Under the pieces are notes generated by a model that searched no databases, was not told the origin of the DNA, and was given only the letters and a program-made list of their open reading frames with translations. A stretch of DNA of 64,000 nucleotides from the NCBI GenBank assembly GCA_035479015.1, contig DATIJC010000002.1, positions 9,777 through 73,776 of the forward strand, read 5' to 3'. This DNA comes from Patescibacteria group bacterium. Lineage in GTDB: Bacteria > Patescibacteriota > Microgenomatia > UBA1400 > UBA12028. Each line of letters begins with the position of its first letter. Within the stretch, counting starts at the first letter, position 1. Positions 7,590 to 58,698 of the stretch are shown here, piece after piece. Both the position numbers and the translations under genes were made by a program.

Positions 7590-8009
7590 TTATTCACGCG
7601 GAATGTGTATCGCTTCCAGCCAAAATGTTAGTTTTGGTTCCAAAGGAACAGACTGTAAAACTTCGGCAATTTCCACTTCACACTTTTTGATTGTCTCTTC
7701 GACAAATTCAGGAACAGAAAAGCCGGGAGAGCTTATTAGGATACGAGCATGGGGGTATTGATCATCCGCGGGAAAAAAACGTACATCTTCAGTTTCATCA
7801 AAGTATTCACTATCGCTGAGCAAGTTGTCATCATCACTACCCAAATCAAACTGAGTCTGCAGCCAGAGAAAAAAGGTATAAAAATCCTGATCTAATTTCA
7901 ACCAAGAAAACGGATAGTCTAGGATGTCTTTTGGTTTTAAAAATCCATTTTCGGTACCGCTAAAAAGCAAAGAGATCATTAGTCTTTTGCTACGATGCTC
8001 TGGATCCAT
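7590..8009 (-). CDS. Hypothetical acidic protein immediately downstream of lexA (likely co-transcribed)
   Basis: 139 aa protein rich in Asp and Glu, 2 bp downstream of the lexA stop on the same strand. Confidence 0.45.
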   Translation of the reverse strand: MDPEHRSKRLMISLLFSGTENGFLKPKDILDYPFSWLKLDQDFYTFFLWLQTQFDLGSDDDNLLSDSEYFDETEDVRFFPADDQYPHARILISSPGFSVPEFVEETIKKCEVEIAEVLQSVPLEPKLTFWLEAIHIPRE

Positions 8010-8010
8010 A

Positions 8011-8631
8011 TTAATTCCCGAATTTGCGGATCAAGCCCACACAGCGGCCTTGAATGGTCACCTTGGTCGCAAAGATCGGCTGCATCTTAGAATTGGCTGG
8101 CTCCAAGCGGATGCGGGTAGCCTCTTTGTAGAATTTCTTGAGAGTCGCTAATCCGTTGTCCAAAAGGGCGACCACGATATCGCCATTCATCACCTCCGGC
8201 TGTTCTTCAATGACTACATAATCTCCATCAAGGATTCCTTCTTCGATCATACTGTCGCCCTTCACTTTGAGTACAAAGGCGCGCTTCTTCCCAGAGACCA
8301 ACTCAGGTGAAACTTTAAACGTCGCATTCGGGTCTGTGTACGGCATGATTGGCTGCCCGGCGGCGATAAAACCCAGGAGCGGCAAGTCTACTGCATCAGT
8401 GAGGCGTAGGAAGGTACGGTCGATCAATTCCAAGCCCCGGACTGTCCCTTCATATTTGCGGATTACCTTCTTCCTGACCAATGCCTGCAGATGTTCATGC
8501 ACTGTAGCTAGAGAGCTCACACCTATAGCCGTGGCTATCTCCTGCAGTGTCGGGGAGTACCCGTTTTTTTGGATAAATTGTGCAATGAAGTCAACAATTT
8601 GGCGCTGGCGCTTATATAATGTCATTGGCAT
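8011..8631 (-). CDS. lexA: LexA repressor (S24 peptidase with N-terminal winged HTH)
   Basis: Contains the S24 peptidase Ser/Lys dyad region (GDSM...VVALLDNGLATLKKF) and an N-terminal LexA DNA-binding domain. The ATG at 8631 follows a GGGAAAG ribosome-binding site; the track ORF extends to 8697. Confidence 0.8.
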   Translation of the reverse strand: MPMTLYKRQRQIVDFIAQFIQKNGYSPTLQEIATAIGVSSLATVHEHLQALVRKKVIRKYEGTVRGLELIDRTFLRLTDAVDLPLLGFIAAGQPIMPYTDPNATFKVSPELVSGKKRAFVLKVKGDSMIEEGILDGDYVVIEEQPEVMNGDIVVALLDNGLATLKKFYKEATRIRLEPANSKMQPIFATKVTIQGRCVGLIRKFGN

Positions 8632-8705
8632 ACTTTCCCTTTCTTTCGTGCAAAGATTGTCCTGCACAAAGTCTCGTTTTCCGAAGATTACATTCAAGTT
8701 ACCCG

Positions 8706-8719
8706 AAAGTAGAGGGTAC
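8706..8719 (+). promoter_or_regulatory. Candidate operator motif AAAGTAGAGGGTAC in the lexA-uvrB divergent intergenic region
   Basis: It lies inside the palindrome TTACCCGAAAGTAGAGGGTAC (8699-8719). A near-identical motif lies upstream of uvrA (45916-45930) and a weaker one upstream of tRNA-Pro. Confidence 0.3.
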
Positions 8720-8780
8720 GGTCAAGCGGATACTAGTGGATCAATAGCTATCACTATGCATAATGTGGGATAATAGATGC

Positions 8781-10895
8781 ATGGGAAAGTTCCAACTCAA
8801 AGCTCCATACACCCCAATGGGTGATCAGCCGCAGTGCATAAATGCACTCACAGCTGGATTTTCTGGTGGAGTGAAAGATCAAGTACTCTTGGGCGTCACT
8901 GGTAGCGGCAAGACATACACCGTGGCCAATGTCATCCAAAACTTACAAAAACCCACCCTAGTGATTGCCCACAACAAGACGCTCGCAGCACAGCTCTACC
9001 AAGAATTCCGTGATTTTTTCCCTGACAACGCGGTCAGTTACTTCGTCTCGTATTACGATTACTATCAGCCGGAAAGTTATATCCCCAGCACAGACACATA
9101 TATTGAAAAAGAGACACAGATCAACGATGAGATCGACAAACTCAGGCTAAGTGCCACAACTAATTTGTTAACACGTCCAGACTGCATTGTGGTGGCTTCC
9201 GTATCATGTATCTATAACCTTGGTTCTCCCGTAGAGTATGGCAAAAATATTTTAGAACTTGTTGAAGGAGAACTACTTTCCCGCCAGAGCATCCTCACGC
9301 AATTAACCAATTTGCAATATGTGCGCAATGACATGGATTTAGCGCGAGGGACATTCAGAGTTCGTGGAGAAAATATTCAAATTTGGCCAGCTTATCAAGA
9401 TAACGCGCTAACTCTACAAATGCTAGGCAACCAGATTGAGAAGATCAAGACTATCGACCCAACTAGCGGCAACACGATAGAGAATGAAAATCCTTCCAAG
9501 CGCTTTGTACTATATCCGGCCAAACATTACACTACAAATCCTCTAACCCAAGAAGAATCCATTGCGCAGATAGAAACGGATTTAAAAATTCGCACAGAGA
9601 CTTTACGCAGTGCAGGAAAAGTGCTTGAGGCATATAGACTGGAGCAGAAAGTTCACTACGACCTCGACATGATACGGGAATTAGGGTTTGTAAATGGTAT
9701 AGAAAATTACTCACGCTACTTCGATGGTAGGAATCCCGGTGATCCACCCTTTACTCTATTGGATTACTTTGCCGAAAACGCAAAGATCTTTCATTCAGGA
9801 TCCTTTTTGACTGTGGTTGATGAAAGTCATATTACTATTCCACAGGTCCGCGGCATGTATAACGGAGATCAATCACGCAAATCCACTCTTATTGATTACG
9901 GTTTCCGCTTGCCATCAGCACTGGATAACCGCCCATTAAAATTTGATGAATTTTTGAGGAACGTTGACCAGACTCTATTTGTCAGCGCTACACCGTCGCC
10001 TTGGGAAGTATCGATGAGCGATGGTCATGTTGTAGAGCAACTTATACGCCCTACGGGCGTGATTGAGCCAATAATCGAGGTCCGCGGCAGCGAAGGACAG
10101 ATTGATAATCTAATCAAAGAAATTATGGCTCGCAAAGCCTTGGGGCAACGTGTTCTGGTCACCACAATTACAAAACGGATGGCAGAAGTACTCACAGATT
10201 ATCTAAATGACGAAAAGAAAGTGACACAGGCTGCAAGCCGTGTCATCCCAGAACCTGGCGTGCAACGCCAAGTATCCGGGATCCAGCTCCTAAAGGTTGC
10301 ATATTTGCACTCTGATATAGAGACTCTAGACCGATTGGATATTTTGGCTGATCTGCGTAGTGGTGTATATGACGTGCTGGTGGGCATAAATCTTCTGCGT
10401 GAAGGCTTAGATTTACCCGAGGTCACACTGGTGGCGATCTTGGATGCAGATAAAGAAGGGTTCTTGCGTTCTGCTCCCTCTTTAATTCAAATCATGGGTC
10501 GAGCAGCACGTCATCAGGATGGCAAAGTGATCTTATATGCTGACCGGGTTACTGGTTCTATGCAAGTTGCCATGGATGAAATTTTCCGCCGGCGCGAAAT
10601 ACAACTCGCCTACAACGAAAAACACAACATTACACCAATCACGATCATCAAGCCGATCCGCAAAGAATTAATCACCCGCAAGAAAGAAGAGACCGAAGAC
10701 TCACCGACGCGAGGAAGAATTCAGTTGGATAAACATACGAAGATAGATCTTGATCAAGTCGACCCCGAAAGCATGACGCCGCAGGATAAAGAAAAGTTAA
10801 AGAAGCAACTCACCCGGAAAATGAATGATGCAGCACGGCTCTGGAACTTCGAGCTAGCTGCAAGGCTGCGCGATACAATCACTACCCTTTCATAA
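8781..10895 (+). CDS. uvrB: Excinuclease ABC subunit B
   Basis: Contains a GDQP motif, helicase motifs (GVTGSGKT) and a UVR domain. The ATG at 8781 gives the typical UvrB N-terminus; the track ORF starts at 8763. Confidence 0.9.
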   Translation: MGKFQLKAPYTPMGDQPQCINALTAGFSGGVKDQVLLGVTGSGKTYTVANVIQNLQKPTLVIAHNKTLAAQLYQEFRDFFPDNAVSYFVSYYDYYQPESYIPSTDTYIEKETQINDEIDKLRLSATTNLLTRPDCIVVASVSCIYNLGSPVEYGKNILELVEGELLSRQSILTQLTNLQYVRNDMDLARGTFRVRGENIQIWPAYQDNALTLQMLGNQIEKIKTIDPTSGNTIENENPSKRFVLYPAKHYTTNPLTQEESIAQIETDLKIRTETLRSAGKVLEAYRLEQKVHYDLDMIRELGFVNGIENYSRYFDGRNPGDPPFTLLDYFAENAKIFHSGSFLTVVDESHITIPQVRGMYNGDQSRKSTLIDYGFRLPSALDNRPLKFDEFLRNVDQTLFVSATPSPWEVSMSDGHVVEQLIRPTGVIEPIIEVRGSEGQIDNLIKEIMARKALGQRVLVTTITKRMAEVLTDYLNDEKKVTQAASRVIPEPGVQRQVSGIQLLKVAYLHSDIETLDRLDILADLRSGVYDVLVGINLLREGLDLPEVTLVAILDADKEGFLRSAPSLIQIMGRAARHQDGKVILYADRVTGSMQVAMDEIFRRREIQLAYNEKHNITPITIIKPIRKELITRKKEETEDSPTRGRIQLDKHTKIDLDQVDPESMTPQDKEKLKKQLTRKMNDAARLWNFELAARLRDTITTLS

Positions 10896-11928
10896 GTCGG
10901 TCAAGCTCCGGTGATAGCTCACGTGCCAATGCACGCAATACGATGAAGACTGGTACCGCCAACAGCGCACCTATTGCACCACCAAATCTCGCACCTCCAA
11001 GGAGTAATACTATTGATATTAATGGACTGATTCCGACTGCGTTACGCATGACTTGTGGGACTATGATGTGATTCTCTAATTGTTGTACCAATATATACAA
11101 AACCAAGGTAACTACACCCATTATTGGAGAAACCAAGAATGACGCCACGAGTATGGCGGGGATCGCTGAAAGCGTTGGCCCGATATTTGGCAGTGCTTCC
11201 AAAATTCCCGCAAGGATAGAAAGCGGCAATGCATACGGAATATTTAAGACTGTCAAACCAATAAATGTCATTATTCCGATCGTTAACATCAAAATGAACT
11301 CTCCGCGTACCCATCCACCTAAGTCTTTTTCAATTTGCGCAACCAACTTCCTTCCCCGTTCTTCTTTATCATCAGTGCGAAATAGTATCATCGCGTACCT
11401 ATAGAGACGGTCCCGCTCTACTAAGAAATAGAGCGACATAACAAGTACCGTAAATAAAGAGAAAATAACAGAGAATGTCGATTGCACAAAATGCAGAACG
11501 GCACCAAGTGATGCTCCATATTGTGAGACCAATCCAGTAAGCTCAGTAGCTGTCAATTGTAAATGTGTCAGTGCTTTCAAGAATGACAAATTCGGCAAGT
11601 CAAATTGTGAGAATAGCCGGATCGTTTGATCCGCGAGCGGCGGTATGAGCGTAGCCCCCATCACCACAAAGAAGCCTACTAAGATCACATACACTACGAG
11701 AATTGCAGCGATACGTGAGAATCGAAGCCGCTGAAGACGGGACACCAAGGGTTCCAGTGCAGTCATTAGCACAAATGCGATCATGAGCAGGATCACGATG
11801 TCGATAGCACGCAAGAATATATACACTGCTGCGATAAATAGACCGATAGAAAACAGGGTCTTCAGTGAGATATCAATACGAAGGTTTTTCATGACTTTAA
11901 TTGTAGCAGTCAATCCATTCAATTTCAC
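10882..11928 (-). CDS. AI-2E family transporter (UPF0118/PerM-like)
   Basis: 348 aa polytopic membrane protein with AI-2E family topology. Confidence 0.65.
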   Translation of the reverse strand: MKLNGLTATIKVMKNLRIDISLKTLFSIGLFIAAVYIFLRAIDIVILLMIAFVLMTALEPLVSRLQRLRFSRIAAILVVYVILVGFFVVMGATLIPPLADQTIRLFSQFDLPNLSFLKALTHLQLTATELTGLVSQYGASLGAVLHFVQSTFSVIFSLFTVLVMSLYFLVERDRLYRYAMILFRTDDKEERGRKLVAQIEKDLGGWVRGEFILMLTIGIMTFIGLTVLNIPYALPLSILAGILEALPNIGPTLSAIPAILVASFLVSPIMGVVTLVLYILVQQLENHIIVPQVMRNAVGISPLISIVLLLGGARFGGAIGALLAVPVFIVLRALARELSPELDRLMKG

Positions 11929-15976: not shown

Positions 15977-16008
15977 GTCATTCCTGCGAAGGCAGGAATC
16001 CAGTCAAC
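15977..16008. repeat. Palindromic REP/MITE-like element, copy A (GTCATTCCTGCGAAGGCAGGAATCCAGTCAAC)
   Basis: Perfect hairpin with an 8-11 bp stem and a GAAG loop; it is intergenic. The consensus recurs at 16698, 38254, 47821, 58609 and 58668. Confidence 0.7.
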
Positions 16009-16697: not shown

Positions 16698-16728
16698 TTG
16701 TCTGGATCCCTGCCTTCGCAGGGATGAC
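16698..16728. repeat. Palindromic REP/MITE-like element, copy B (inverted orientation, compensatory variant)
   Basis: The plus strand reads ttgtctggatccctgccttcgcagggatgac. Stem changes T to C and A to G are paired, so the hairpin is conserved. Confidence 0.7.
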
Positions 16729-25334: not shown

Positions 25335-26288
25335 TTGGAATGCGATATTTGGCAGAGAAGTATCTCTATAGGTCGCCGAGAAAATAATACGCAACAGCAA
25401 CGTGTGACAGAGATAAATAAGATACGACTGCTCTCCCAAAAACTCTAAAACATGCCTTACAGTACTTTGAATTTTCAGCAACTGTGCTCGCACTGCGATA
25501 GACACTCCTATAAATCCCGACGCATACAAAACTATTGGGAAACGTGTAAAACGCAGAGCATTAATCGTGTCGTATCCTCTGCCAACTAGTACGAATCCAC
25601 TGATGACACACAGAGTCAAACCAACCAAAGTTTTCAAGCCAAAAAAACCAATGTGAAACTTAGGCATACCCTTCTCCAATGAAAGTCGCATTCCCAAGCC
25701 AAAGTAAAAAATCCAACTAAAAGAAAAGAGGTACTGGTAATTATTACGCAAGGCAGCTATCCATCCACCAGCTCCTGCCATAAATGGCGAATACAAAAAT
25801 AGCGTGACGAGTTGAACTATTAAGAGACATATAAGAAACAGATTTTTATTTTTTAACATGCCAAAACGAAGTATCGGAAATAATAGATAGAGTTGAATAA
25901 TCATTGGCACAAAGTAGAGTTGATAGTCGCCGTAGCCAAGTAACAATTTGTTTAACAAATCAAAATGAAGCGTATGACCAATTGCAACACTGAGCACTAC
26001 AGTCCACAAAATATAGAGCGGCAGCAAACGCATTACTCGGCGCCAAAAAAATGAACTGAGAGTAAGTTTGTCCGCGTACTTACTCATCAGCGCATACCCT
26101 GAGAGCGCGATAAACAGTGGCACACAAAACCGGGCAGCCTGATCAGCGACCACCAACCAGAAATTACCTGTATATATGGTGGCGTACAGATTATGGACGC
26201 TAGATAGTGTATGAAGGAAGATAACACCCAGGATCGCAATGCCTTTTAAAATTGTCGTTGTGCGAATGTCATCTTTGAGCGCTAGCAT
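25281..26288 (-). CDS. Acyltransferase family 3 (OatA-like) membrane protein
   Basis: 335 aa protein with about 10 TM helices and acyltransferase_3 topology. Confidence 0.65.
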   Translation of the reverse strand: MLALKDDIRTTTILKGIAILGVIFLHTLSSVHNLYATIYTGNFWLVVADQAARFCVPLFIALSGYALMSKYADKLTLSSFFWRRVMRLLPLYILWTVVLSVAIGHTLHFDLLNKLLLGYGDYQLYFVPMIIQLYLLFPILRFGMLKNKNLFLICLLIVQLVTLFLYSPFMAGAGGWIAALRNNYQYLFSFSWIFYFGLGMRLSLEKGMPKFHIGFFGLKTLVGLTLCVISGFVLVGRGYDTINALRFTRFPIVLYASGFIGVSIAVRAQLLKIQSTVRHVLEFLGEQSYLIYLCHTLLLRIIFSATYRDTSLPNIAFQSLLFVVGLIASFFVQKI

Positions 26289-27667
26289 AATGTGATTGCA
26301 GCCTTCACACGGGATAGTGTCAATTGTTTACCCAACACTCTAATCGTGTCAAATAAAGGGGGTGAAACTGTCCTACCTGTGACCGCCACGCGAAGCGTAG
26401 TAAAGAAGGCACCACGGTTCCAGCCTTTGCTATCTACCATCGCCAGCATCTCAGTTTCTTCAAAAGATTTTTCTAATGTACTCAGAGCTGCTTCTAAATA
26501 CTTTTTGGCTTCACTCATACTGGATTTTTTACCCATCAATTCTTCTACAGTTGGATGAATATCATGGTAGAAAAATTCGGTCAGCGGACCGATATCATGC
26601 AGCGTCACGAGACGCTCACGTACCAGTGGCAAAATCTTTGGCAATAAATCCTGAGGAAAGTCATCTGGTAAAAATGGAAAGAGGGCGGTCTCTACTTCAT
26701 CTGTCTTCAATACCTCACGGATATACTTCCCATTCATCCAGTCCAATTTTTTGACATCAAAGATCGGCCCAGTAGTTTGCATCCTGGAAAATGAAAACAC
26801 CTTGATAAATTCCTGCAGTGCAAAGATATCTTTTTCATCTGGATGCGACCAACCCATGAGACACAAATAGTTTCTAAGAGCCTGCGGCAGATACCCTTTC
26901 TCTTTATAGCTTGGGATCGAAACATCATTCTTGCGCTTACTCATTTTGGTTTTGTCCACGTTGCGCAACAGTGGCATGTGCGCAAATACAGGCAGCTGCC
27001 AACCAAAGTAGCGATAGAGCAAAATGTGTTTGGGTGTGCTGCTAATCCACTCTTCTCCACGGATAACGTGAGAGATTTGCATTCGGTTGTCGTCCACCAC
27101 AACAGCTAGATGATATGTCGGAAATCCATCCGACTTCATCAGGACCTGATCATCCAGTTCTTTGGTGTTTATCGAAATAGTGCCACGAACGAGATCATCC
27201 CAACTGATCATCTCATTATCTGGCATTTTCATACGGATCACGTGGCGCTCCCCACTATCGAGCCTCTTCTGGACCTCTTCTTTTGGTAGATGCGTACATA
27301 AGCGGTCATAGCGAGGAATTTCTTTGCGGGCTTGTTGTTCTTTACGCATAGTTTCCAAGCGCTCGGGCGTGCAGAAACAGTAGTAGGCGTGACCTTTTTG
27401 AATAAGTGTCTGCACGGCAGCACTGTAATCTTCTAAATGCTCGGACTGCCGAAAAGTTTTGGTATACGGGATCTCAAGCCAGTCGAGTGAATCATAGATC
27501 ACTTGTTCTGCACCTTCCACGAAGCGTGCCCTATCCGTATCTTCTATGCGAACTAAAAATTCACCATCATTCTGACGCGCAAACGCGTAATTAAATAGTG
27601 CCATGTAGGCAGTGCCGATATGCGCAATACCGGTCGGAGATGGAGCAATTCTAGTTCGTACAGTCAT
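26282..27667 (-). CDS. gltX: Glutamyl-tRNA synthetase
   Basis: Contains the HIGH motif (HIGTAYMALFNYAF) and the KMSKS motif (KMSKR). Confidence 0.9.
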   Translation of the reverse strand: MTVRTRIAPSPTGIAHIGTAYMALFNYAFARQNDGEFLVRIEDTDRARFVEGAEQVIYDSLDWLEIPYTKTFRQSEHLEDYSAAVQTLIQKGHAYYCFCTPERLETMRKEQQARKEIPRYDRLCTHLPKEEVQKRLDSGERHVIRMKMPDNEMISWDDLVRGTISINTKELDDQVLMKSDGFPTYHLAVVVDDNRMQISHVIRGEEWISSTPKHILLYRYFGWQLPVFAHMPLLRNVDKTKMSKRKNDVSIPSYKEKGYLPQALRNYLCLMGWSHPDEKDIFALQEFIKVFSFSRMQTTGPIFDVKKLDWMNGKYIREVLKTDEVETALFPFLPDDFPQDLLPKILPLVRERLVTLHDIGPLTEFFYHDIHPTVEELMGKKSSMSEAKKYLEAALSTLEKSFEETEMLAMVDSKGWNRGAFFTTLRVAVTGRTVSPPLFDTIRVLGKQLTLSRVKAAITLC

Positions 27668-27705: not shown

Positions 27706-28782
27706 ATGCCCGCAGCGAAACCAGCTTCACCACTTACACTCACTCAAGTTGCTTCATTCATGCGGAAGTTCATAGCGATCGCAGGTGTAACTCTTGCGGT
27801 GATGATAGTCGGCCGTGTGTTCTTAGAAAGCGCAGTAGGATATTGGAAGGCTACTCACCCCGCACCACCGCCTCCACCTACTGCTGTCTTTGGTTTATTA
27901 CCTAGGCTGAAGTTTCCGACAAGCGTCGGAACTGCGACCTCGCTCAAGTTGGAAATCCCTCCCTCCAGACTCCGACCTGTGTCTGACCGCGCAACGGTGT
28001 ACTTTATCCGCTCTAAACGTCCAAGCTTACTAGCCTTGGACAAAGCCAAAGAGCAAGCCGCTACGCTGGGATTTTTATTTGAACCTGATCGCATAGATAC
28101 ACAGACGTATAGATGGAGGAGGACACAGCCGCTGACGTCAGTCCTTGATTACGACATTATTACAGGAATGTTTACCATGAGCTTAGATTGGCAGTCAGAT
28201 CCAAATTTCCTGCAAAATAGTAAACTTCCTATTGAAGATGAAGCTATCTTGAATGTTCGAAGCAGCCTATCGACAGCCGGCCTCCTTGAAAAAGACATCG
28301 CAACGGGCAGCGCACAAGTTTCATACCTTAAATCATCCGGTGGCACATACGAACCCACTGTGAGTTTCTCTGAAGCAGACTTCCTGCAAATAGATCTCTA
28401 CCGCACTCCGGTGAATGGTCAATATCAAGTAGTCACGGAGGAACCAGGTCACGGAACAATACGTGCAATCATTACAGGTTCAAGTGATAAATCTAATTTC
28501 TTTGCCAAATTGGAATACTATTATTTGCCAATCGAGTACGGAATATCTGCTACATATCCCATTATCACCCCCACCAGAGCGTTTCAATTACTATCTGAGG
28601 GGTCAGGATATACTGCCGCGATGCCTACCACAGGCAAAGATGTGATCGTGCGCAATATAAATCTTGCATACTATGATTCAAAAGCCGAACAGCAATACCT
28701 TCAGCCGGTCTATGTCTTAACTGGAGACGGGGGATATGTAGGGTACGTTAGTGCAATTGACCCGCGATACGTAGTACAATAA
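27706..28782 (+). CDS. Hypothetical membrane-anchored or secreted protein, Pro-rich linker
   Basis: 358 aa protein with an N-terminal TM helix followed by a PPPPPP stretch. Confidence 0.5.
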   Translation: MPAAKPASPLTLTQVASFMRKFIAIAGVTLAVMIVGRVFLESAVGYWKATHPAPPPPPTAVFGLLPRLKFPTSVGTATSLKLEIPPSRLRPVSDRATVYFIRSKRPSLLALDKAKEQAATLGFLFEPDRIDTQTYRWRRTQPLTSVLDYDIITGMFTMSLDWQSDPNFLQNSKLPIEDEAILNVRSSLSTAGLLEKDIATGSAQVSYLKSSGGTYEPTVSFSEADFLQIDLYRTPVNGQYQVVTEEPGHGTIRAIITGSSDKSNFFAKLEYYYLPIEYGISATYPIITPTRAFQLLSEGSGYTAAMPTTGKDVIVRNINLAYYDSKAEQQYLQPVYVLTGDGGYVGYVSAIDPRYVVQ

Positions 28783-33109: not shown

Positions 33110-34752
33110 TGAATGTCTTTGACAATTATCTGAAGACTTTTTGACCCATTCCAATGGTTCACCTGCAGGTGACCAATCAATGACACGGTGGGGGAATTTG
33201 AAAAGTGTTCAAGTTCCCTCCCGTGTCCAAACCAAAGCAGATCACAGTCCGCAGTGCGCAGTTTTAAGTGTTTTCCTTCTTTTCCGATAATTTTTGCACT
33301 GTCGATTTTGACTTTATCCATTTGAAATAGTGGTTCGCGGTTACCGGGACCAAACGGCTGCATGACCGTCAATCCTTGCGCCACTTCCATCGTTTGGAGA
33401 GTTGTTGGCAATACAGAATCCACATCAATCAATGCTGTCAGCAGTGATACATCAATTGTGTTTTTGGCATGTTGGCGCAATTTTTGCGAAAAGACTTCAA
33501 TCTGTGCAGTTTGCAACTTCAATCCAGCCGCCATCGGATGGCCTCCGATTTCCATAAGATCAGACTTTACTTCACGCAGCAGATTTGTGATATGTACACC
33601 TGCGACACTTCTGGCTGATCCTTTCGCTGTTTCACCTGAGATCGCCAACACTATCGAGGGTTTATAAAACATTTCAGTGAGACGACTGGCGATCAGTCCT
33701 ATCACGCCCTCATGAAATTGATCGCTGGCTACGATGATCACACTCTCCTCTTTCCACGTCTGTCGCTTTGCAAGTGCAATCTCATACATCTGTGTGGTCA
33801 GATCCTGACGGGTGATGTTGGTATCGTGCAATTTCCCAATTAGAACCGCCGCTTTACTTCTATCCTTCGTACACAGTGCCCGCAGAGCATCCAGTGCATT
33901 TCCCAGACGCCCCATCGCATTAATGCGCGGAGCAATAGCAAAATTGACTGCGTACGTATCAACCGGTTTTCCTTTTAACCCGGCAGCCTCTATCAGCAAT
34001 TGCAAACCAATCCGCCTCGTTTTCTGCAACTGTTCTAAACCAAATTTAACAAATGATCTATTCGCGTCCGTGAGAATTACTTGGTCAGCAATCGTCGCAA
34101 TCGCACAAAGATCGAGTAAATCTTCAATATTTTTTGATGCTTGGATTTTGGATTTTGGAATTTTAGCAAGTTCTCTTGCTAACATCCACGCTACAGTTGT
34201 GCCACAGAGCTTGGTCGTATGAATAATGCAATCAGCGGGTGGCAGTTTATCCTCAGGTTCGTGATGGTCAGTGAGTATTGTGAAGACCCCAACATCGGCA
34301 AGCCTCTGCCACTGCGCCTCAGCTACGATCCCATTGTCTACTGAGATTAAAATAGAAGGCTTATTCTTTGCCAGAATTTCATCTAAAGCTTTTGTAGACA
34401 AACCATAACCATGCTCTTTACGGTCAGGAATAAACGGTAACACACTAAAGCCGATGTTGTGCATCGTTTCCCACAGTACCGTGGTCGCACATACGCCGTC
34501 ACAATCATAATCACCAAAGATAATTATTTTTTCTTTGTTTTCCAAAGCCTCTTTTAGCCGCTCTACTGCTTTGTTAACTTGTTCTTTATCGATGCCAACA
34601 TCCTCTAGAGTCAAATCTATCGGATCTTTTGGGTGCAAAAAACTTTCTTTATCAGTAATGCCCCTATTTTTTAATAGGATGGAGAGTATTTCTTCATTAG
34701 TTTTTGGCTCTTTTTTTGAAAGCAGATTCCAGTTCATACAAGATGCTATCAT
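33106..34752 (-). CDS. recJ: Single-stranded-DNA-specific exonuclease RecJ
   Basis: Contains DHH (IIFGDYDCDGV...DHH) and DHHA1 motifs (GGHPMAAG). It carries an in-frame heptamer repeat at 34141-34164. Confidence 0.85.
   Translation of the reverse strand: MIASCMNWNLLSKKEPKTNEEILSILLKNRGITDKESFLHPKDPIDLTLEDVGIDKEQVNKAVERLKEALENKEKIIIFGDYDCDGVCATTVLWETMHNIGFSVLPFIPDRKEHGYGLSTKALDEILAKNKPSILISVDNGIVAEAQWQRLADVGVFTILTDHHEPEDKLPPADCIIHTTKLCGTTVAWMLARELAKIPKSKIQASKNIEDLLDLCAIATIADQVILTDANRSFVKFGLEQLQKTRRIGLQLLIEAAGLKGKPVDTYAVNFAIAPRINAMGRLGNALDALRALCTKDRSKAAVLIGKLHDTNITRQDLTTQMYEIALAKRQTWKEESVIIVASDQFHEGVIGLIASRLTEMFYKPSIVLAISGETAKGSARSVAGVHITNLLREVKSDLMEIGGHPMAAGLKLQTAQIEVFSQKLRQHAKNTIDVSLLTALIDVDSVLPTTLQTMEVAQGLTVMQPFGPGNREPLFQMDKVKIDSAKIIGKEGKHLKLRTADCDLLWFGHGRELEHFSNSPTVSLIGHLQVNHWNGSKSLQIIVKDIH
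34141..34164. repeat. Tandem heptanucleotide repeat (AAAATCC/AAATTCC), in frame within recJ
   Basis: The plus strand reads ttggattttggattttggaatttt. On the coding strand it encodes LAKIPKSKIQAS. Confidence 0.6.
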
Positions 34753-34758
34753 ACCCGT

Positions 34759-38253: not shown

Positions 38254-38273
38254 GTCATTCCTGCGAAGGCAGG
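38254..38273. repeat. Palindromic element, truncated left half (copy C)
   Basis: Reads gtcattcctgcgaaggcagg then diverges. A second degenerate piece, ctggatcc...cgggatgac, lies at 38324-38370. Confidence 0.5.
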
Positions 38274-38439
38274 TTTACGAATACCCTCGCGGTAAATCCA
38301 TGCAATAAATATTCAATTCGTTTCTGGATCCTGGACAAGGCTCCTAATCGCCGCCTTTACCGGGATGACACACAACAACACAGTATTGTACCAAATCAAT
38401 ATAGATCGACCATCTTTCGACTTTGCTCAAGATAATTGA

Positions 38440-42957: not shown

Positions 42958-45906
42958 TTATCTTAGTTCTTTGGCCAAAAATTGACCAGTGAGGGATTCG
43001 GGATTCCCGGCAACCTCACTTGGAGTACCAATTGTCACGACCTCACCGCCAGCATCACCGCCTTCAGGTCCTAAATCAATGATCCAATCTGCATTCTTGA
43101 TCACGTCTAAGTTATGTTCAATGACCACTACTGTATTGCCGCTGTCGACGAGACGGCGGAGCACTAAGAGCAGATTTTGAATATCTTCAAAGTGTAAACC
43201 AGTTGTCGGCTCATCAAGTAAGTACATCACATGCTCCTGACTTCGAAGTGATAACTCCCGCGCTAGTTTGACACGCTGCGCTTCACCACCAGAGAGTGTT
43301 GGTGCACTTTGACCCAAGGTCATGTATCCAAGTCCTACGTCCTGCAAAGTTAGTAACTTATGCTGAATGGACCCATGATGTGCAAAGAAATTGACTGCCT
43401 CATCAATACTCATCGCCAATACTTGGGCAATATTTTTCTCTTTATATAACACATCTAACGTCTCTGCGTTGTAGCGAGTGCCTTTACAAATATCACAAGT
43501 TACATAGACATCCGGCAAAAATTGCATCTCTATTTTCACTTGCCCCTCTCCCTGACACGCCTCACACCGGCCGCCCTTGACATTGAAACTAAATCTGCCG
43601 GCTCCAAATCCCCGCGCGTGTGCATCTTGAGTGCTGGCATATACCGTGCGTATTAGATCAAATACCTTTGTGTACGTAGCGGGATTACTGCGGGGCGTCT
43701 TGCCGATCGGACTTTGATCAATCAAGGAAATCCGTTTTAGCGCTGGATCTGCCTGCAGACTATCGATCTGGCCAAGCGGTTCATGAACAATGTACCCCAA
43801 CTCTTTTGCTAGATTTCGATATAACGTCTCGTGCAAAAGCGTAGATTTACCCGATCCAGACACACCTGTAATACAGATAAATTTTGACAAGGGGAATGAG
43901 ACATCTATACTTTTGAGGTTATGAGCCCGGGCTCCGGTAATATCTACATTACCATCCACAATTTTAGTGGCTTCGCGTTTTTCAGGTAACTTCACTTTTT
44001 TCTTACCACAAAGGTATTTACCAGTCAGTGATGCTGGATTTTTAATCAGATCCTCTACTTTGCCTGCCGCTACTACTTCACCGCCGTTTTTTCCTGCCCG
44101 CGGGCCAAAGTCCACTACCCAGTCTGCTGCCTCAATAGTCTCACGATCATGTTCGACAACAATCACAGAGTTGCCTAGATCGCGCAGTCTGTGTAGCGTA
44201 GCAATCAAACGCTCATTGTCGCGCGGATGCAATCCAATCGTCGGTTCATCCAGAACGTAAAGCACGCCCGTAAGACCCGTACCAATCTGTGATGCCAAAC
44301 GGATACGCTGGGCCTCACCACCTGCGAGTGTGCCCGCTTCGCGCGATAGTGAAAGATACGTGAGTCCGACTGAATCCAAAAACTCCAACCGTTCTTGGAT
44401 CTCTTTCAAAATACTGGCAGCGATGAAGTTTTCTTTTTCTGTCACCAACCCTTTGGTCAAACCGCTCTTTTTCAAGTTTTGTATCCAAACTTTTGCATGG
44501 CTGATAGGGAAGTCACACACGGCAGCAATGCTCAGTCCATCTACATGAACTGCGAGGCTTTCTGGTTTTAGACGCTTACCATTACAGGCTGGACAAATTT
44601 GCCGCTCCATAAAGCGCTCAATTTCCGCCCGCATAAATTCAGACTCGGATTCAGTGTACTTGCGCTCTAAGTATGAGACAAATCCCTCAAACTTCTCTTC
44701 TATCTGCGTCTCATTGCCGAATCGATTAGTTCCAAACACTCTGTGTAATTTTGGCGCATCACCTGATAACAGCACATTTTTTACGGTGTCAGAAAGTTTT
44801 TCCCAAGGTGTTCGCAAGTTTCCACCGTATTCGGATACTACTTGCGTCACAAGACGGGAAAACCAAGAGTCGCCGCTCATCACCCGTTCGAAAGGAATCA
44901 CCGCTCCTTCCGCTAACGTGAGGGAAGACGCAATTAATTTTTCCGGGATCACTTTGAGCAGCGACCCTAAACCATTACAGGTCTCGCACGCACCATGTGG
45001 CGTATTGAAAGAAAAGATCCGTGGTTCTATCTCAGGGAGTGAAGTTCCATCAAATGGGCACAGGAATTTCTCCGAATACAAGACATCTTCCATGTTTTTG
45101 GGTTTATCAGGAAATGAGAGAGAGGCATCAGTTACAAAACTAACCACGGTTAGTCCATCAGCTAACTTCAATGAGATTTCAATATCAGCTGCTAGTCTGG
45201 AGCGGAAGTCCTTGCGCTCGCTGTCATCACGTAGCATCTTACGGTCAATCACCAACCGGTCGATAACCGCGCTGATGGTGTGTTTGTTATTCTTTAGTAA
45301 GAGAAAGTCCTCATCTACTTCAAAGACTGTTCCGTCCACCCGGACCCGGGAAAACCCCTTCTTCTTGAGGTTTTCAAACAGCGAGGTAAACTCCCCTTTG
45401 CGGTCACGAACCACAGGGGAGAGGATCATAAGCCGTACACCAGAGGTAATCTCACTACGGCCTTCAATTTTTTCCATGACCGCATTAACGATTTCATCGA
45501 TTGAGCTGCGTTTGATTTCACGGCCGCATGTCGGACAATGTGGGCGACCTATGCGGGCATAGAGTAACCGCAAGTAATCATATATTTCGGTTATCGTCCC
45601 CACTGTCGATCGTGGATTGTGCGACGTGGTCTTCTGATCGATAGAAATAGCGGGGGAGAGTCCACCGATAAAGTCGACATCTGGCTTACCCATTACCCCA
45701 AGAAATTGACGTGCATAGGACGAGAGGCTCTCTACGTACCTGCGTTGTCCCTCGGCATAGATCGTGTCAAACGCGAGGGATGACTTCCCACTACCTGACA
45801 TCCCGGTGAGTACTACGAGCTTGTTTTTAGGTAGATCAAGATCAACATTCTTGAGATTATGTTGTCGTGCTCCTCGAATAGAAATGAAGTCTTGGTTGCC
45901 AGTCAT
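42958..45906 (-). CDS. uvrA: Excinuclease ABC subunit A
   Basis: 982 aa protein with two ABC modules (GMSGSGKSSL and GVSGSGKSTL) and zinc-finger cysteine clusters. Confidence 0.95.
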   Translation of the reverse strand: MTGNQDFISIRGARQHNLKNVDLDLPKNKLVVLTGMSGSGKSSLAFDTIYAEGQRRYVESLSSYARQFLGVMGKPDVDFIGGLSPAISIDQKTTSHNPRSTVGTITEIYDYLRLLYARIGRPHCPTCGREIKRSSIDEIVNAVMEKIEGRSEITSGVRLMILSPVVRDRKGEFTSLFENLKKKGFSRVRVDGTVFEVDEDFLLLKNNKHTISAVIDRLVIDRKMLRDDSERKDFRSRLAADIEISLKLADGLTVVSFVTDASLSFPDKPKNMEDVLYSEKFLCPFDGTSLPEIEPRIFSFNTPHGACETCNGLGSLLKVIPEKLIASSLTLAEGAVIPFERVMSGDSWFSRLVTQVVSEYGGNLRTPWEKLSDTVKNVLLSGDAPKLHRVFGTNRFGNETQIEEKFEGFVSYLERKYTESESEFMRAEIERFMERQICPACNGKRLKPESLAVHVDGLSIAAVCDFPISHAKVWIQNLKKSGLTKGLVTEKENFIAASILKEIQERLEFLDSVGLTYLSLSREAGTLAGGEAQRIRLASQIGTGLTGVLYVLDEPTIGLHPRDNERLIATLHRLRDLGNSVIVVEHDRETIEAADWVVDFGPRAGKNGGEVVAAGKVEDLIKNPASLTGKYLCGKKKVKLPEKREATKIVDGNVDITGARAHNLKSIDVSFPLSKFICITGVSGSGKSTLLHETLYRNLAKELGYIVHEPLGQIDSLQADPALKRISLIDQSPIGKTPRSNPATYTKVFDLIRTVYASTQDAHARGFGAGRFSFNVKGGRCEACQGEGQVKIEMQFLPDVYVTCDICKGTRYNAETLDVLYKEKNIAQVLAMSIDEAVNFFAHHGSIQHKLLTLQDVGLGYMTLGQSAPTLSGGEAQRVKLARELSLRSQEHVMYLLDEPTTGLHFEDIQNLLLVLRRLVDSGNTVVVIEHNLDVIKNADWIIDLGPEGGDAGGEVVTIGTPSEVAGNPESLTGQFLAKELR

Positions 45907-45915
45907 GAATTGGTT

Positions 45916-45930
45916 ATTGTACCCTACTTT
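45916..45930 (-). promoter_or_regulatory. Candidate operator/promoter motif AAAGTAGGGTACAAT upstream of uvrA
   Basis: The minus strand reads AAAGTAGGGTACAAT, 9 nt before the uvrA ATG. It lies inside the inverted repeat TTGTAC-N16-GTACAA and resembles the lexA/uvrB motif. Confidence 0.3.
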
Positions 45931-46006
45931 TCTCTCGAGTACAATACAGTCAAGTTACTTCCCTATTGTGTATATATTTATTGCATCTTGAGCGGGAAAG
46001 GAATGC

Positions 46007-46249: not shown

Positions 46250-47657
46250 GTTTTATATCACCACAGCTATACCGTACGTCAACGGCAAACCGCACATCGG
46301 CCACACGCTGGAATTTGTGCAAACAGACACGATTGCCCGGTTTCACAAACTTATGGGTGATGAGGTTACCCTACTTACCGGCTCTGATGAGAATTCGCTA
46401 AAAAATGTCCGCGCTGCAGAAAAAGAAAACATCTCTACAAAAGAACTGTTGGACAAATACACAGCTGTATGGAAAGAGTTTAGTCAATCGCTGGATATCG
46501 AAGTCGATGTATTCCAGCGCAGCTTCAATCCTAAAACTCACTTCCCTGGCGTGCAAAAATTATGGAAACTCTGTGCTGAGAGCGGAGATTTTTATAAGAA
46601 AAAATACCAAGGACTCTACTGCGTCGGCTGTGAACAATTTTATAAACCAGAAGATCTAGTGGACGGTAAATGCCCACTTCATCTCACCTACCCCGATCAA
46701 ATCGATGAAGAGAACTATTTTTTCAAACTCAGTAAGTATCAAGATCAAATTCGCCAATTGATTGAATCAGACACAGTCCATGTAGTTCCAGAAAAGATGA
46801 AACGTGAAGTTCTCACATTCATCGATAATGGACTGGAAGACTTCTCCGTTTCCCGTTCGCTCGAACGTGCCCGTGGGGTGGGCGTACCAGTACCTAATGA
46901 TGCCACCCAAGTCATGTATGTGTGGTTTGACGCGTTGGCAGTGTACATGACCGGCATCGGCTATGGCTGGGATGAGAAAAATTGGGAGAAGTTATGGCCG
47001 GCTGATGTCCACGTCATCGGAAAAGATATTGTCCGCTTCCATGCAATTTACTGGATCGGCATGTTACTCTCTGCAAAACTTCCCTTGCCAAAAACTATTA
47101 TGGTTCACGGTCATATAACTAGCGGTGGAGCCAAGATGAGCAAGAGCATTGGCAATGTGATCGACCCATATGAAGTGATCGCTAAATATGGCAAGGACTT
47201 TACACGTTTCTACTTGTTGTTTGAAGTTCCCACCTTGGATGACGGTGATTTTACCCTCAGCCGTGCTGATGAACTCTATTCATCAGAGTTTGTGAATGGC
47301 ATAGGCAATCTTGCGTCACGCGTAGCAGCATTGTGCGAGAAAAGCAGTAAAAGATTTCCGCCCATGGCGGATCAGCCTTGGGCTGACAAGTCAAAAATAC
47401 ATAACTATGATCTGCGAGAATCACTGCGAGGTGTTTGGCAAAACATGTGGCAGCTTAACAAACAATTGAGCGATGATGAGCCATGGAAGATGGAGACGGA
47501 TAAATTGGGCGAATACTTAGTGCCGGTAGTACAAAATTTGCGGCAAATTGCTTTTGACCTCTCCCCGTTTACACCGTCATTATCTGCAAAATTGCTCTCG
47601 CATTTTGGACAGGATAAAATCACAAAAATTGCTCCCCTGTTTCCAAAATTGCAATGA
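46242..47657 (+). CDS. metG: Methionyl-tRNA synthetase (short form)
   Basis: Contains the HIGH motif (HIGHTLEF), the KMSKS motif, and zinc knuckle cysteines. The ATG at 46242 follows the upstream ORF's stop codon. Confidence 0.9.
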   Translation: MSKFYITTAIPYVNGKPHIGHTLEFVQTDTIARFHKLMGDEVTLLTGSDENSLKNVRAAEKENISTKELLDKYTAVWKEFSQSLDIEVDVFQRSFNPKTHFPGVQKLWKLCAESGDFYKKKYQGLYCVGCEQFYKPEDLVDGKCPLHLTYPDQIDEENYFFKLSKYQDQIRQLIESDTVHVVPEKMKREVLTFIDNGLEDFSVSRSLERARGVGVPVPNDATQVMYVWFDALAVYMTGIGYGWDEKNWEKLWPADVHVIGKDIVRFHAIYWIGMLLSAKLPLPKTIMVHGHITSGGAKMSKSIGNVIDPYEVIAKYGKDFTRFYLLFEVPTLDDGDFTLSRADELYSSEFVNGIGNLASRVAALCEKSSKRFPPMADQPWADKSKIHNYDLRESLRGVWQNMWQLNKQLSDDEPWKMETDKLGEYLVPVVQNLRQIAFDLSPFTPSLSAKLLSHFGQDKITKIAPLFPKLQ

Positions 47658-48715
47658 AGTTTTTAACTCAGACTTTTCTTTTCTTGTGGATATTTTTTAT
47701 CCCTTCTTCCCTTGCCTACCACTACAATGTACAGACCGGATTAGTACACGGAATTTTGGTGGATTATCGAATCCCTATCATTAGTGCGGATGTACTATTT
47801 TTTATTGCGTTTTTAGCATTGTCATTCCTGCGAAGGCAGGAATCCAGTCAACTAAAAAAACTTCTTGTGTTTTCTATCGGTTTTACAATGATCTTTCAGT
47901 TTTGCCTTGCTCTTTTTCAAACTATCTTTCAGCGCTCTTTATTTGGTTATCTTCCCTTTGGTGAAGTGGATTATCACTCACCCGCCATCGCTAAAGGCGT
48001 ATTCAACGGTTTCATTTATAAACTTCCATATGGGACAACCGTTCATCCAAATATTCTTGCCGGCTTCTTTGTAGTGTGTTTTCTGGTTCTAGCAACATAC
48101 AAAACAAAGTTTCTTAAGTACTTTTTTTTAATGACACTATTAATCATCTTTCTCACACAATCCTTATCTGCACTTATCGCACTGCTAGCGGGAATACTTG
48201 TTTTCTTAATCAATAAAAAATATCTAAAACTTGCGAAGATTCTTGTAATTTTATTTGGATTAGGAGTTGTGTTTGTTTTATCCAATATTCGATATACCAA
48301 ATACGATATACCCTCGCTCGCTCGCCGTGCGCAGTTGGAACAATTGGCCTTTAGCATGATTCATGATCATCCGCTAACCGGGGTCGGCTGGAACAACTTT
48401 ACGCTAGAGATGGATAACTACGGCTATGTGCGTGGAAATGTACGTTTCCTACAGCCTGTGCACAATATGTTCCTATTATTGATTAGTGAGCTGGGGATTT
48501 TCGGCATAGTGCTCGTGGCAATTTGGATCAAACTTATTTGGAAAGCGAATCAAATCACACTTGTGTTTTTGAGCGCCTTTACCGTGCTTAGCAGTTTTGA
48601 CCATTACCTGCTCACGCTCACCACGGGCCGCATGTTACTTATCCTGAGCCTCGTCGTGATAAAATTAGTCTCGTCTCGCCCCCATAGTTCAATGGATAAA
48701 ACAGGAGACTTCTAA
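47654..48715 (+). CDS. O-antigen ligase-like (Wzy_C) polytopic membrane protein
   Basis: About 10 TM helices and a large loop containing RRAQLEQLAFSMIHDHPLTGVGWNNF. It contains an in-frame palindromic element at 47821-47852, and its 3' end overlaps tRNA-Arg. Confidence 0.55.
   Translation: MKFLTQTFLFLWIFFIPSSLAYHYNVQTGLVHGILVDYRIPIISADVLFFIAFLALSFLRRQESSQLKKLLVFSIGFTMIFQFCLALFQTIFQRSLFGYLPFGEVDYHSPAIAKGVFNGFIYKLPYGTTVHPNILAGFFVVCFLVLATYKTKFLKYFFLMTLLIIFLTQSLSALIALLAGILVFLINKKYLKLAKILVILFGLGVVFVLSNIRYTKYDIPSLARRAQLEQLAFSMIHDHPLTGVGWNNFTLEMDNYGYVRGNVRFLQPVHNMFLLLISELGIFGIVLVAIWIKLIWKANQITLVFLSAFTVLSSFDHYLLTLTTGRMLLILSLVVIKLVSSRPHSSMDKTGDF
47821..47852. repeat. Palindromic REP/MITE-like element, copy D, in frame inside a CDS
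   Basis: Identical 32-mer gtcattcctgcgaaggcaggaatccagtcaac. It is translated as LSFLRRQESSQL. Confidence 0.7.
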
Positions 48716-54091: not shown

Positions 54092-54565
54092 TTACCTTTT
54101 TTTAGCTGTTTCGTCAAGGAAACGGCTAATCTCACTTGAGGAGAAACCAGAGGAGAACAGAACCTGGTATGTCTTTGCCCGCTGCAGGTTGGACGGTTGT
54201 TTTGCAATCCTGCCTTTCGCCTTTTGTAAGCGTTTTTCCATAGCCGCAAACAAATCTTCTTCACTAACCTCTCTGAGAGCATTCGAGATATCTTCTTTAG
54301 AAATGCCGAGACTAGAAAGTTTGGCTTTGATATATGCCTGCCCCTTCGCTTTGGAGGAAATCAGAGAATGGACGAAGCTGGCTGCTGTGCGAGAGTCATC
54401 TATATAGCCAAGACGTTTATATTTTTCCACCAGCACATCAATGATATTTTCGTCTTCACCGTCATGAAGTTTTCGCTGTAAGTATCGGCGCACTTCTAGC
54501 TCGCTTCGGTCACGGATCGAAATATATCTACCAAGTAAGTTTTCCAAACGGACTATTTCACTCAT
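54092..54565 (-). CDS. recX: Regulatory protein RecX
   Basis: 157 aa helical-repeat protein immediately downstream of recA with a 4-nt overlap. Confidence 0.65.
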
Positions 54566-55683
54566 TCTTCTTTTGGACTTTCGGACTCTTTGATTTCCAT
54601 CGGCGCCCCGGCCTTGCCATCTTTTATACGCTGGCGGATGAGCGCGTCCAACTCGTTCATGAGCGCCTGATTTGCTTCTAATTCAAGCTTCAATGCATCA
54701 CGACCCTGTGCCAAAGTTTTGTCCTTGTACTTATAGAAACTCCCGCTTTTTTGTAAAATTCCCATCTCTACGGCGACGTCTACGATACCACCACTCTTAC
54801 TTATTCCCCCTACGTTCATGATATCAAACTCTGCCATACGGAATGGCGGTGCCATTTTATTTTTCACTACTTTGCCACGATGCCGTCCGCCGATCACCAC
54901 TTCACCTTCTGTTATGTTACCAATCTTGCGCATATCTACACGGGCCGATGCATAGAATTTCAATGCCTGTCCACCAGTAGTCGTTTCCGGATTACCAAAC
55001 ATGACGCCAATTTTCATGCGGATTTGGTTGGTAAAGATAAGTAAGGTCTTACTTTTGTTGATTGCTGCAGTGAGCTTGCGCATCGCTTGACTCATCAAAC
55101 GAGCCTGTGCACCCATGACGGCATCTCCCATCTCGCCTTCGATTTCTGCCTTTGGTGTAAGTGCTGCGACGGAGTCGACAACGATGACATCCAAACCACC
55201 GGATCGAACCAGCATCTCTGTGATCTCCAGTGCTTGTTCACCGTTATCAGGTTGAGAAATTAATAAATTATCTAAATTCACACCGATCGCTTTAGCGCGC
55301 ATCGGATCCAGTGCGTGTTCAGCATCAATAAAGGCTGCCGTGCCACCTTTTTTCTGTGCCTCAGCGATCACATGCAGACACACTGTGGTTTTTCCTGATG
55401 CTTCAGGTCCATATACTTCTACGATACGTCCGCGCGGGAAACCGCCGATACCAAGTGCAAGATCTAACGCTATAGAACCAGTGGAGATAGCGGGAACCAG
55501 TTGCTCCGCCTGCATCTGCTCACCCAATTTCATGATGGATCCCTTGCCGTACTGTTTTTCAATCTGCTGCATGGCAATGCGTACAGCCTCCATACGTTCA
55601 CTGTTTACATTAGAAACTGGCTGCCTGTTTTGTGTTGGTTGCGGCGCTGGCATAGAAACCTTTCTCTTTATGTTCGGGCTCAT
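54562..55683 (-). CDS. recA: Recombinase RecA
   Basis: Contains Walker A (GPEASGKTT), [15 protein letters not shown] and the L1/L2 loops. Confidence 0.95.
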
Positions 55684-55707
55684 CTAAACACAGAAAGAAA
55701 TTACTGA

Positions 55708-55723
55708 CAAGTAGCGGTATAAT
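55708..55723 (+). promoter_or_regulatory. Motif CAAGTAGCGGTATAAT (likely tRNA-Pro promoter -10; resembles the shared AAGTAG..GGTA motif)
   Basis: TATAAT lies 52 nt before tRNA-Pro. The motif sits in the recA divergent intergenic region. Confidence 0.25.
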
Positions 55724-55775: not shown

Positions 55776-55846
55776 CGGGGTATAGTTTAATGGTAGAATT
55801 CGTGGCTGGGGGTCATGAGGCGAAAGTTCGATTCTTTCTACCCCGA
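55776..55846 (+). tRNA. tRNA-Pro (GGG)
   Basis: Manual fold gives C1-G72 acceptor (CGGGGUA/UACCCCG), anticodon stem CGUGG/UCAUG (two G-U pairs), loop CUGGGGG with G37, and T-arm GAAAGUUCGAUUCUUUC. Confidence 0.75.
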
Positions 55847-55850
55847 CTTA

Positions 55851-58667: not shown

Positions 58668-58698
58668 TTGCATGGATTCCTGCCTTCGCAGGAATGAC
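58668..58698. repeat. Palindromic REP/MITE-like element, copy F (inverted relative to E)
   Basis: The plus strand reads gttgcatggattcctgccttcgcaggaatgac. Confidence 0.65.

Follow-up and report, generated by a model that had tools for sequence, protein, structure and literature searches.

A probable direct-repeat LexA operator overlapping the lexA promoter in an uncultured Patescibacteria genome

The 64-kb stretch of contig DATIJC010000002.1 analysed here (the window; base composition, ~44% GC) derives from an uncultured Patescibacteria bacterium of the Microgenomates type, resembling Woesebacteria and Pacebacteria, and carries the classic SOS genes lexA, uvrB, uvrA, and recA. In the minus strand of the lexA-uvrB intergenic DNA, the lexA promoter is overlapped by the sequence TTTCGGGTAACTTGAATGTA (8689-8708), which occupies the position of a conserved direct repeat found upstream of lexA in most related genomes. 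From sequence comparison, we consider this site to be a LexA operator of the direct-repeat kind already described for Patescibacteria (PMC7739468), with a probability of roughly 0.7. A LexA dimer bound to it would cover the -10 element and the transcription start, repressing lexA and a probably co-transcribed orphan open reading frame (ORF), and RecA-stimulated self-cleavage of LexA would lift this repression. The first-pass annotation of this DNA had proposed another sequence, AAAGTAG(N0-2)GGTAC, as a LexA box shared by uvrA, the lexA/uvrB region, and recA-adjacent DNA. The interval to which it assigned the lexA/uvrB copy (8648-8782) probably does hold a LexA operator, which differs from the proposed sequence.

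Direct repeat upstream of lexA in related genomes

Upstream regions were read at 80 lexA loci (L001-L080) from species-representative genomes, and the LexA homologues with 80-100% identity are labelled Patescibacteria, Pacebacteria, Cerribacteria, or Woesebacteria. Motif discovery by expectation maximization on 81 lexA upstream regions yielded the consensus TTYGGGTAnTnTTTGGTAA, i.e. the repeat TTYGGGTA-N3-TTTGGTAA in an ~11-bp register, which was recognized as a direct repeat because the correlation between its halves peaks at offsets of 10-11 nt (r = 0.61-0.66). With a cut-off of >14 bits, a site is present in 74 of the 81 regions and overlaps the promoter, the -35 sequence of which (TTGAC) is found in nearly all of them. 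Two registers were distinguished. At 61 loci, the distance from the start of TTGAC to the motif is 5-9 nt and the -10 element is supplied by the second half of the repeat; at 18 loci, including that of the window, this distance is 17-18 nt and the -10 element is supplied by the first half (GGG followed by TAnnnT). Its place with respect to the -35 element thus shifts by one repeat unit, yet the motif always overlaps a -10 element.

Outside the lexA upstream DNA, the 80 loci contain 10 matches of >14 bits, compared with 2.5 in shuffled sequences. The motif precedes uvrB in L029, L032, L065, and L078 (by eye also in L020 and L074), uvrA in L046, L053, and L072 as well as in the metagenome loci L091 and L121, and recA in L176 (18.3 bits) and L175 (14.8 bits). 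It lies on the opposite strand in L091, L102, and L175, and at uvrA of L053 and L072 it is located upstream of a separate -10 element. Since the motif recurs at SOS genes on either strand, its association with the regulon is independent of orientation. The near-universal presence at lexA, the recurrence at repair genes, and the free position and strand together point to a motif that would serve as the operator of an autoregulated LexA.

The same repeat could be regarded as a composite promoter element consisting of tandem extended -10 boxes, or as the site of another regulator of repair genes. Each half consists of GGG or TGG followed by TAnnnT, like the generic G-rich extended -10, and the inferred -10 element always falls on one of the halves. 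However, the one-unit shift between the two registers, the position upstream of a separate -10 element at two uvrA genes, and the copies on the opposite strand all speak against such an explanation, and most other promoters in the window are devoid of the repeat. A distribution that is nearly universal at lexA and extends elsewhere to uvrA, uvrB, and recA is the signature of an autoregulated LexA, and PMC7739468 places the Patescibacteria SOS study among the cases in which LexA recognizes a direct repeat. We thus regard a promoter element or another regulator as unlikely and retain LexA as the probable ligand of the repeat.

A third repeat at +22 was detected in 4-7 of 37 loci, and three-repeat arrays are present in L009-L011; being limited to a minority of loci, the third repeat was rejected as a general feature. 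In many Microgenomates, one or two TTGATC/TTGATA boxes (e.g. ATTGATCCAGTTGAC) are located immediately upstream of the lexA -35 element (L003, L006, L007, L012, L014, L016, L045, L051, L074, and L078; 8735-8742 in the window), and they may represent a second promoter or another binding site.

The lexA promoter and predicted operator of the window

The minus strand of the lexA promoter reads CTTGACC-GTACCCTCTACTTTCGGG-TAACTT-GAATGTAATCTTCGGAAAAC. Promoter elements, here and below, were inferred from conservation and geometry, and the putative lexA -10 element begins 18 nt after the -35 element, inside the predicted operator (Table 1). This TTGAC-N18-TAnnnT geometry is common to the window and L001-L014, L025, L027, L029, and L034. 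When the lexA promoters of the window and its seven closest genomes (L001-L007; LexA 88-91% identical) were aligned, TTGAC and TTTnGnGTA were invariant, whereas the spacer between them was scrambled. The first half of the predicted operator, TTCGGGTA (8700-8707), matches TTYGGGTA perfectly. Because the second half, TGAATGTA, is degenerate, the whole site scores only 4.9 bits with the position weight matrix (PWM) of the family; this is about the 10th best score among 128,000 window positions (empirical p, 8e-5). An additional TTCGG follows the first half-site at a distance of 22 nt, the length of two repeat units, and is a possible third repeat; at this position, CGGA or TTGG is kept in the window and the seven closest genomes.

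The LexA protein encoded in the window contains the LexA_DNA_bind and Peptidase_S24 domains, and its recognition region, GVSSLATVHEHLQAL, is identical to that of relatives possessing strong sites, so a changed LexA specificity is not expected. The predicted start of lexA (ATGCCAATG) agrees with the ATGCC start in relatives. The core of the predicted operator, GGGTAA, corresponds to the left arm (TTACCC) of a palindrome that the first-pass annotation had drawn around its proposed box; the TTACCC...GGGTAC palindrome is present, but its arms pair at 5 of 6 positions and it is thus imperfect.

The low score raises the alternative that the site is a decayed relic to which LexA binds weakly or not at all, and that nothing in the window is SOS-regulated. 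Similar decay is seen in L004 and L005 (7-10 bits), and sites are missing at uvrA, uvrB, and recA both in the window and in L161 and L173. On the other side, the first half-site and the -35 element have remained invariant amid a scrambled spacer, the LexA of the window is intact in both domains with a conserved helix-turn-helix, and the further TTCGG at +22 is present in this promoter. A relic therefore appears quite improbable, and a functional LexA operator remains the preferred interpretation of TTTCGGGTAACTTGAATGTA.

Several observations nevertheless weigh against that interpretation. Most relatives have sites of 20-31 bits, far above that of the window. Besides the lexA site, a scan of the whole window with the family PWM returned only coding-region matches of 6-10 bits: the uvrA, uvrB, and recA promoters contain no credible match (scores as good as theirs are reached by one random position in about 700-1,200), and no second site supporting a regulon was found in any other intergenic region. 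The motif is also missing from the recA promoters of six relatives (L161, L162, L163, L171, L173, and L174). Since each half-site looks like an extended -10 box, promoter constraint may account for some of the conservation. A simple sigma-70 scan misses the lexA promoter, because its -10 element fits the consensus at 3 of 6 positions, and the uvrA promoter, because its -35 element fits at 3 of 6. A loosened form of the competing motif, AGTAG-N0-2-GGTA, is found four times in the window compared with 0.47 in shuffled sequences, and the likeness to the published Patescibacteria LexA motif rests on the description of a direct repeat in PMC7739468.

The AAAGTAG(N0-2)GGTAC sequences as promoter DNA

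When re-read from the window, the sequences quoted in the first-pass annotation sit where it had placed them, and the identities of lexA, uvrA, uvrB, and recA were confirmed by Pfam and that of tRNA-Pro by ARAGORN. The proposal that these sequences constitute a LexA box common to the SOS genes fared less well. With up to one mismatch, AAGTAGGGTA has 3 matches in the window against 2.4 expected, i.e. it occurs at the chance level, and AGTAGNNNGTAC has 1 match against 0.25 expected. The excess of the loosened AGTAG-N0-2-GGTA, three of the four copies of which are intergenic beside SOS genes, has to be read with the limit that this pattern was defined post hoc and fitted to three of its own four matches; the fourth falls inside metG (46367-46375). 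At the same place, a second exact AAGTAGGGTA is found on the minus strand, 461 nt upstream of the uvrA start and on the same strand as that gene, probably by chance.

At lexA, AAAGTAGAGGGTAC is the reverse complement of the spacer between the -35 and -10 elements (GTACCCTCTACTTT), and it has only 3 nt in common with the predicted operator. The alignment of the window with L001-L007 shows no conservation of this spacer. At uvrA, AAAGTAGGGTACAAT consists of the spacer and the -10 element TACAAT, and the inverted repeat TTGTAC-N16-GTACAA noted around it corresponds to the -35 and -10 elements. Although TATTGTACTCGAG...GGTACAAT is kept at uvrA in the window, L161, and L173, the AAAGTAG stretch varies, L161 containing AAAGAAGGTACAAT (AAAGAAG) and L173 TTTTGCGGTACAAT (TTTTGCG). 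In the recA/tRNA-Pro region, the CAAGTAG sequence overlaps the reverse complement of the recA -35 element TTGTCA, and the TATAAT that follows faces tRNA-Pro and is the probable -10 element of the tRNA-Pro promoter. Relatives carry GATGTATAAT or GATGTATACT before tRNA-Pro, and AAGTAGCGG is not conserved.

In sigma-70-type promoters such as those of Gram-positive bacteria, the -10 element may be extended by an upstream TGn or TRTG ('-16 region'). The uvrA and tRNA-Pro sequences conform to this type in that TACAAT and TATAAT follow a G at -13/-14, uvrA has a TTG-type -35 element 17 nt upstream, and TGTGn precedes the -10 elements of uvrB and recA. They differ in that the -35 hexamers are weak, which explains why a simple consensus scan misses these promoters, and in that the start codons of uvrA and uvrB are located 6-9 nt after the -10 element. 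In upstream regions, G is enriched at -14 and -13 before TAnAAT (38 and 33%, respectively, versus 17 and 14% in coding DNA). Moreover, GGTATAAT and GGTAAAAT are also found before non-SOS genes, namely a Glu/Gln-family (class Ic) tRNA synthetase gene (26282-27667) and tRNA-His. The likeness among the three sites proposed as a LexA box is due to a generic G-rich extended -10 (GGTAnnAT).

Could AAAGTAG(N0-2)GGTAC still be a genuine, genome-specific element at uvrA, lexA/uvrB, and recA-adjacent DNA, recognized by LexA or by another factor? Besides the excess of its loosened form, AGTAG is found near the uvrB -10 element in L004 and L007. However, the gap between AGTAG and the -10 element ranges from 2 to 6 nt. 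In relatives, the pattern was found upstream of none of 50 uvrB genes, none of 80 uvrA genes, and 1 of 80 lexA genes, and AAGTAG is not conserved at uvrA (L161 and L173), before tRNA-Pro (L161 and L162), or in the lexA spacer (L001-L007). The unchanged recognition helix of LexA likewise gives no reason to expect a new specificity for this sequence. These data largely refute such an element, which we consider very unlikely, and they are of the kind that the first-pass annotation had itself named as refuting its proposal. AAAGTAG(N0-2)GGTAC is ordinary promoter DNA that is not conserved at the orthologous promoters of close relatives. Nor does the direct repeat replace it as an operator shared by uvrA, lexA/uvrB, and recA, since in the window the family motif is not common to uvrA or recA.

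Several other sequences were examined as candidate sites and rejected. Two further palindromes had been offered in the first-pass annotation as alternative LexA boxes, and neither is conserved. GTGCA-N10-TGCAC (8648-8667, minus strand) is not kept in L001-L007; it lies in the predicted 5' untranslated region of lexA (fold energy, -12.8 kcal/mol; z = -2.2) and may form a modest RNA hairpin there. ATGCAT...ATGCAT (8756-8782) is present with a gap of 15 nt rather than 16, and its arms are not conserved in relatives, though the uvrB extended -10 element enclosed by them is kept. The pattern GGGTAnnnT is no lineage-wide promoter signature: it occurs 19 times on both strands of the window, mostly in coding DNA, compared with ~30 expected from a rough base-composition estimate. 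In the recA 5' region, TTCGGG (plus strand, 55673-55678), a potential inverted half-site kept as TYGGGC in L161 and L162, is situated in the -10/+1 region, and the PWM does not support it. TGTGGGATAAT at uvrB scores -4.1 bits as a half-site and relatives carry TGTGAGATAAT in its place; it was therefore assigned to the extended -10 element. GGGTATGAT (34750-34756) was dismissed as a promoter since it contains the recJ start codon.

The uvrA, uvrB, and recA promoters and the extent of the regulon

The recA promoter of the window (TTGTCA-N17-TGTGtTTAGAT) is kept in L161 and L162. The start of the longest recA ORF (55683) falls within the -10 element; the conserved promoter and a ribosome-binding site (GAAAGG) make 55653 (ATGCCAGCG) the likely true start, in agreement with L161 and L162. 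The extended -10 element of uvrB is likewise conserved, TGTGnGATAAT with a start codon 7-9 nt later being found in L001-L007. As this element ends only 6 nt before the ATG in the window, the uvrB mRNA would be leaderless or nearly so. At both uvrB (8764-8783) and uvrA (45904-45921), the inferred -10 element and the start codon are separated by 6-9 nt without a Shine-Dalgarno sequence, suggesting that both mRNAs are leaderless or near-leaderless, which holds for uvrB in many relatives.

A block at uvrA, TATTGTACTCGAG-N10/11-GGTACAAT, including a CTCGAG palindrome, is kept across three lineages (window, 45916-45948, minus strand; L161, ~11030-11065; L173, ~10160-10195), and the neighbouring spacer bases vary. 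It could comprise just the -35 and -10 elements or an additional operator.

As in the window, no credible match to the family matrix was found at uvrA of L161 and L173 or at recA of L161 and L162. Within this clade, lexA and the ORF downstream of it are thus the only genes at which LexA control can be seen. This ORF (139 aa) is separated from lexA by 1 nt and is probably co-transcribed with it; it has no Pfam match, matches only itself among 5.8 billion proteins, and is missing from all 80 related lexA loci. A broader scenario, which we put forward as tentative and rather doubtful, is that in a Woesebacteria-like clade (the window, L004/L005, L161, and L173) the SOS regulon has shrunk to lexA and a genome-specific orphan, with recA, uvrA, and uvrB expressed constitutively from short-leader or leaderless promoters, and that, separately, TATTGTAC-TCGAG-N10-GGTACAAT at uvrA hides the operator of a different, unknown regulator.

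Comparison with known LexA boxes

The closest counterpart of the motif derived here is the Patescibacteria LexA motif (Sanchez-Osuna, Barbe & Erill 2017, Environ Microbiol 19:3465), which is cited in PMC7739468 and PMC8565304; it shares the phylum, the regulator, and, as described in the former, the direct-repeat architecture. The present motif, which overlaps the lexA promoter and is found again at uvrA, uvrB, and recA of relatives, is likened to it by that description, and the instance in the window differs in being unusually weak in its second half. Direct repeats are also recognized by LexA in Alphaproteobacteria (GTTC-N7-GTTC; PMC8565304) and Balneolaeota (TTACACATATTTTWTACATA; PMC7739468). 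These boxes resemble the motif in being tandem, with about one helical turn between the half-sites, in lying over SOS promoters, and in the autoregulation of lexA, whereas they belong to other phyla and their half-sites are unrelated to TTYGGGTA.

With the systems that use palindromic boxes (Escherichia coli, Gram-positive bacteria, and cyanobacteria), the window shares the LexA_DNA_bind and Peptidase_S24 protein family and the expected mechanism, in which LexA acts as a repressor until RecA stimulates its autocleavage. The present motif, however, is non-palindromic, and the canonical patterns CTGT-N8-ACAG, GAAC-N4-GTTC, and RGTAC-N3-DGTWCB have 0, 1, and 0 matches in the window, respectively, none of them near lexA, uvrA, uvrB, or recA. 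The single GAAC-N4-GTTC (24023) is away from the SOS genes and at the chance level. The expectation of the first-pass annotation that the box of this lineage resembles neither CTGT-N8-ACAG nor GAAC-N4-GTTC is consistent with these results.

Gene organization and other sequence elements

The coordinates of the genes and sequence elements are listed in Table 1. The divergent order of lexA and uvrB is kept in 50 of the 80 related loci, and 10 of the 80 form a compact repair cluster in which uvrA is no more than 3 kb away from lexA. Five copies of GTCATTCCTGCGAAGGCAGGAAT, a palindromic element resembling repetitive extragenic palindromes, are present in the window, compared with 0 expected. Four are intergenic in the ORF-based gene model, and the copy at 47821 lies inside an ORF (47654-48715). 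Similar elements are found in intergenic DNA of related genomes, e.g. L024 and L076. The start region of uvrA in L081 (the closest metagenomic UvrA, with 68% identity) is bracketed by GGGTTAAGGRTA, present once on each of the two strands; these copies do not fit the family matrix.

Table 1. Genes and sequence elements of the 64-kb window
Feature	Position	Strand	Remarks
Orphan ORF	7590-8009	-	Directly downstream of lexA
lexA	8011-8631	-	Pfam LexA_DNA_bind and Peptidase_S24
Additional TTCGG	8681-8685	-	Downstream of the first half-site
Predicted LexA operator TTTCGGGTAACTTGAATGTA	8689-8708	-	Positional homologue of the motif in relatives
lexA -10 (inferred), TAACTT	8696-8701	-	Inside the predicted operator
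AAAGTAGAGGGTAC	8706-8719	+	lexA/uvrB intergenic
lexA -35, TTGACC	8720-8725	-	TTGAC invariant in the window and seven closest genomes
uvrB extended -10, TGTGgGATAAT	8764-8774	+	6 nt before ATG; inside ATGCAT...ATGCAT
uvrB	8781-10895	+	Pfam; ATG at 8781
GTCATTCCTGCGAAGGCAGGAAT, copy 1	15977-15999
GTCATTCCTGCGAAGGCAGGAAT, copy 2	16706-16728
TGTAGGGTACGT	~28737-28748		Before ORF 28790
GTCATTCCTGCGAAGGCAGGAAT, copy 3	38254-38276
uvrA	42958-45906	-	Pfam; ATG at 45906
AAAGTAGGGTACAAT	45916-45930	-	9 nt before the uvrA ATG
uvrA promoter	45916-45944	-	-35 TTGTAC, 45939-45944; 17-nt spacer; -10 TACAAT, 45916-45921
TTGTAC-N16-GTACAA	45917-45944		-35 and -10 of uvrA
GTCATTCCTGCGAAGGCAGGAAT, copy 4	47821-47843		Inside ORF 47654-48715
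recX	54092-54565	-	Pfam
recA (ORF call)	54562-55683	-	Pfam
recA promoter	55682-55710	-	-35 TTGTCA, 55705-55710; N17; TGTGtTTAGAT; -10 at 55682-55687
CAAGTAGCGGTATAAT	55708-55723	+	recA/tRNA-Pro region
TATAAT	55718-55723	+	Faces tRNA-Pro; probable -10
tRNA-Pro	55776-55847		ARAGORN
GTCATTCCTGCGAAGGCAGGAAT, copy 5	58676-58698

Implications

The value of these results is mainly one of annotation, i.e. a probable LexA operator has been located in an uncultured Patescibacteria genome, and a plausible-looking motif shared by SOS genes turned out to be promoter DNA. TTYGGGTA-N3-TTTGGTAA provides a usable consensus for Microgenomates. The distribution of the motif suggests that uvrA, uvrB, and recA belong to the LexA regulon in some lineages of this reduced-genome group and not in others, which bears on how far an SOS network can be reduced.

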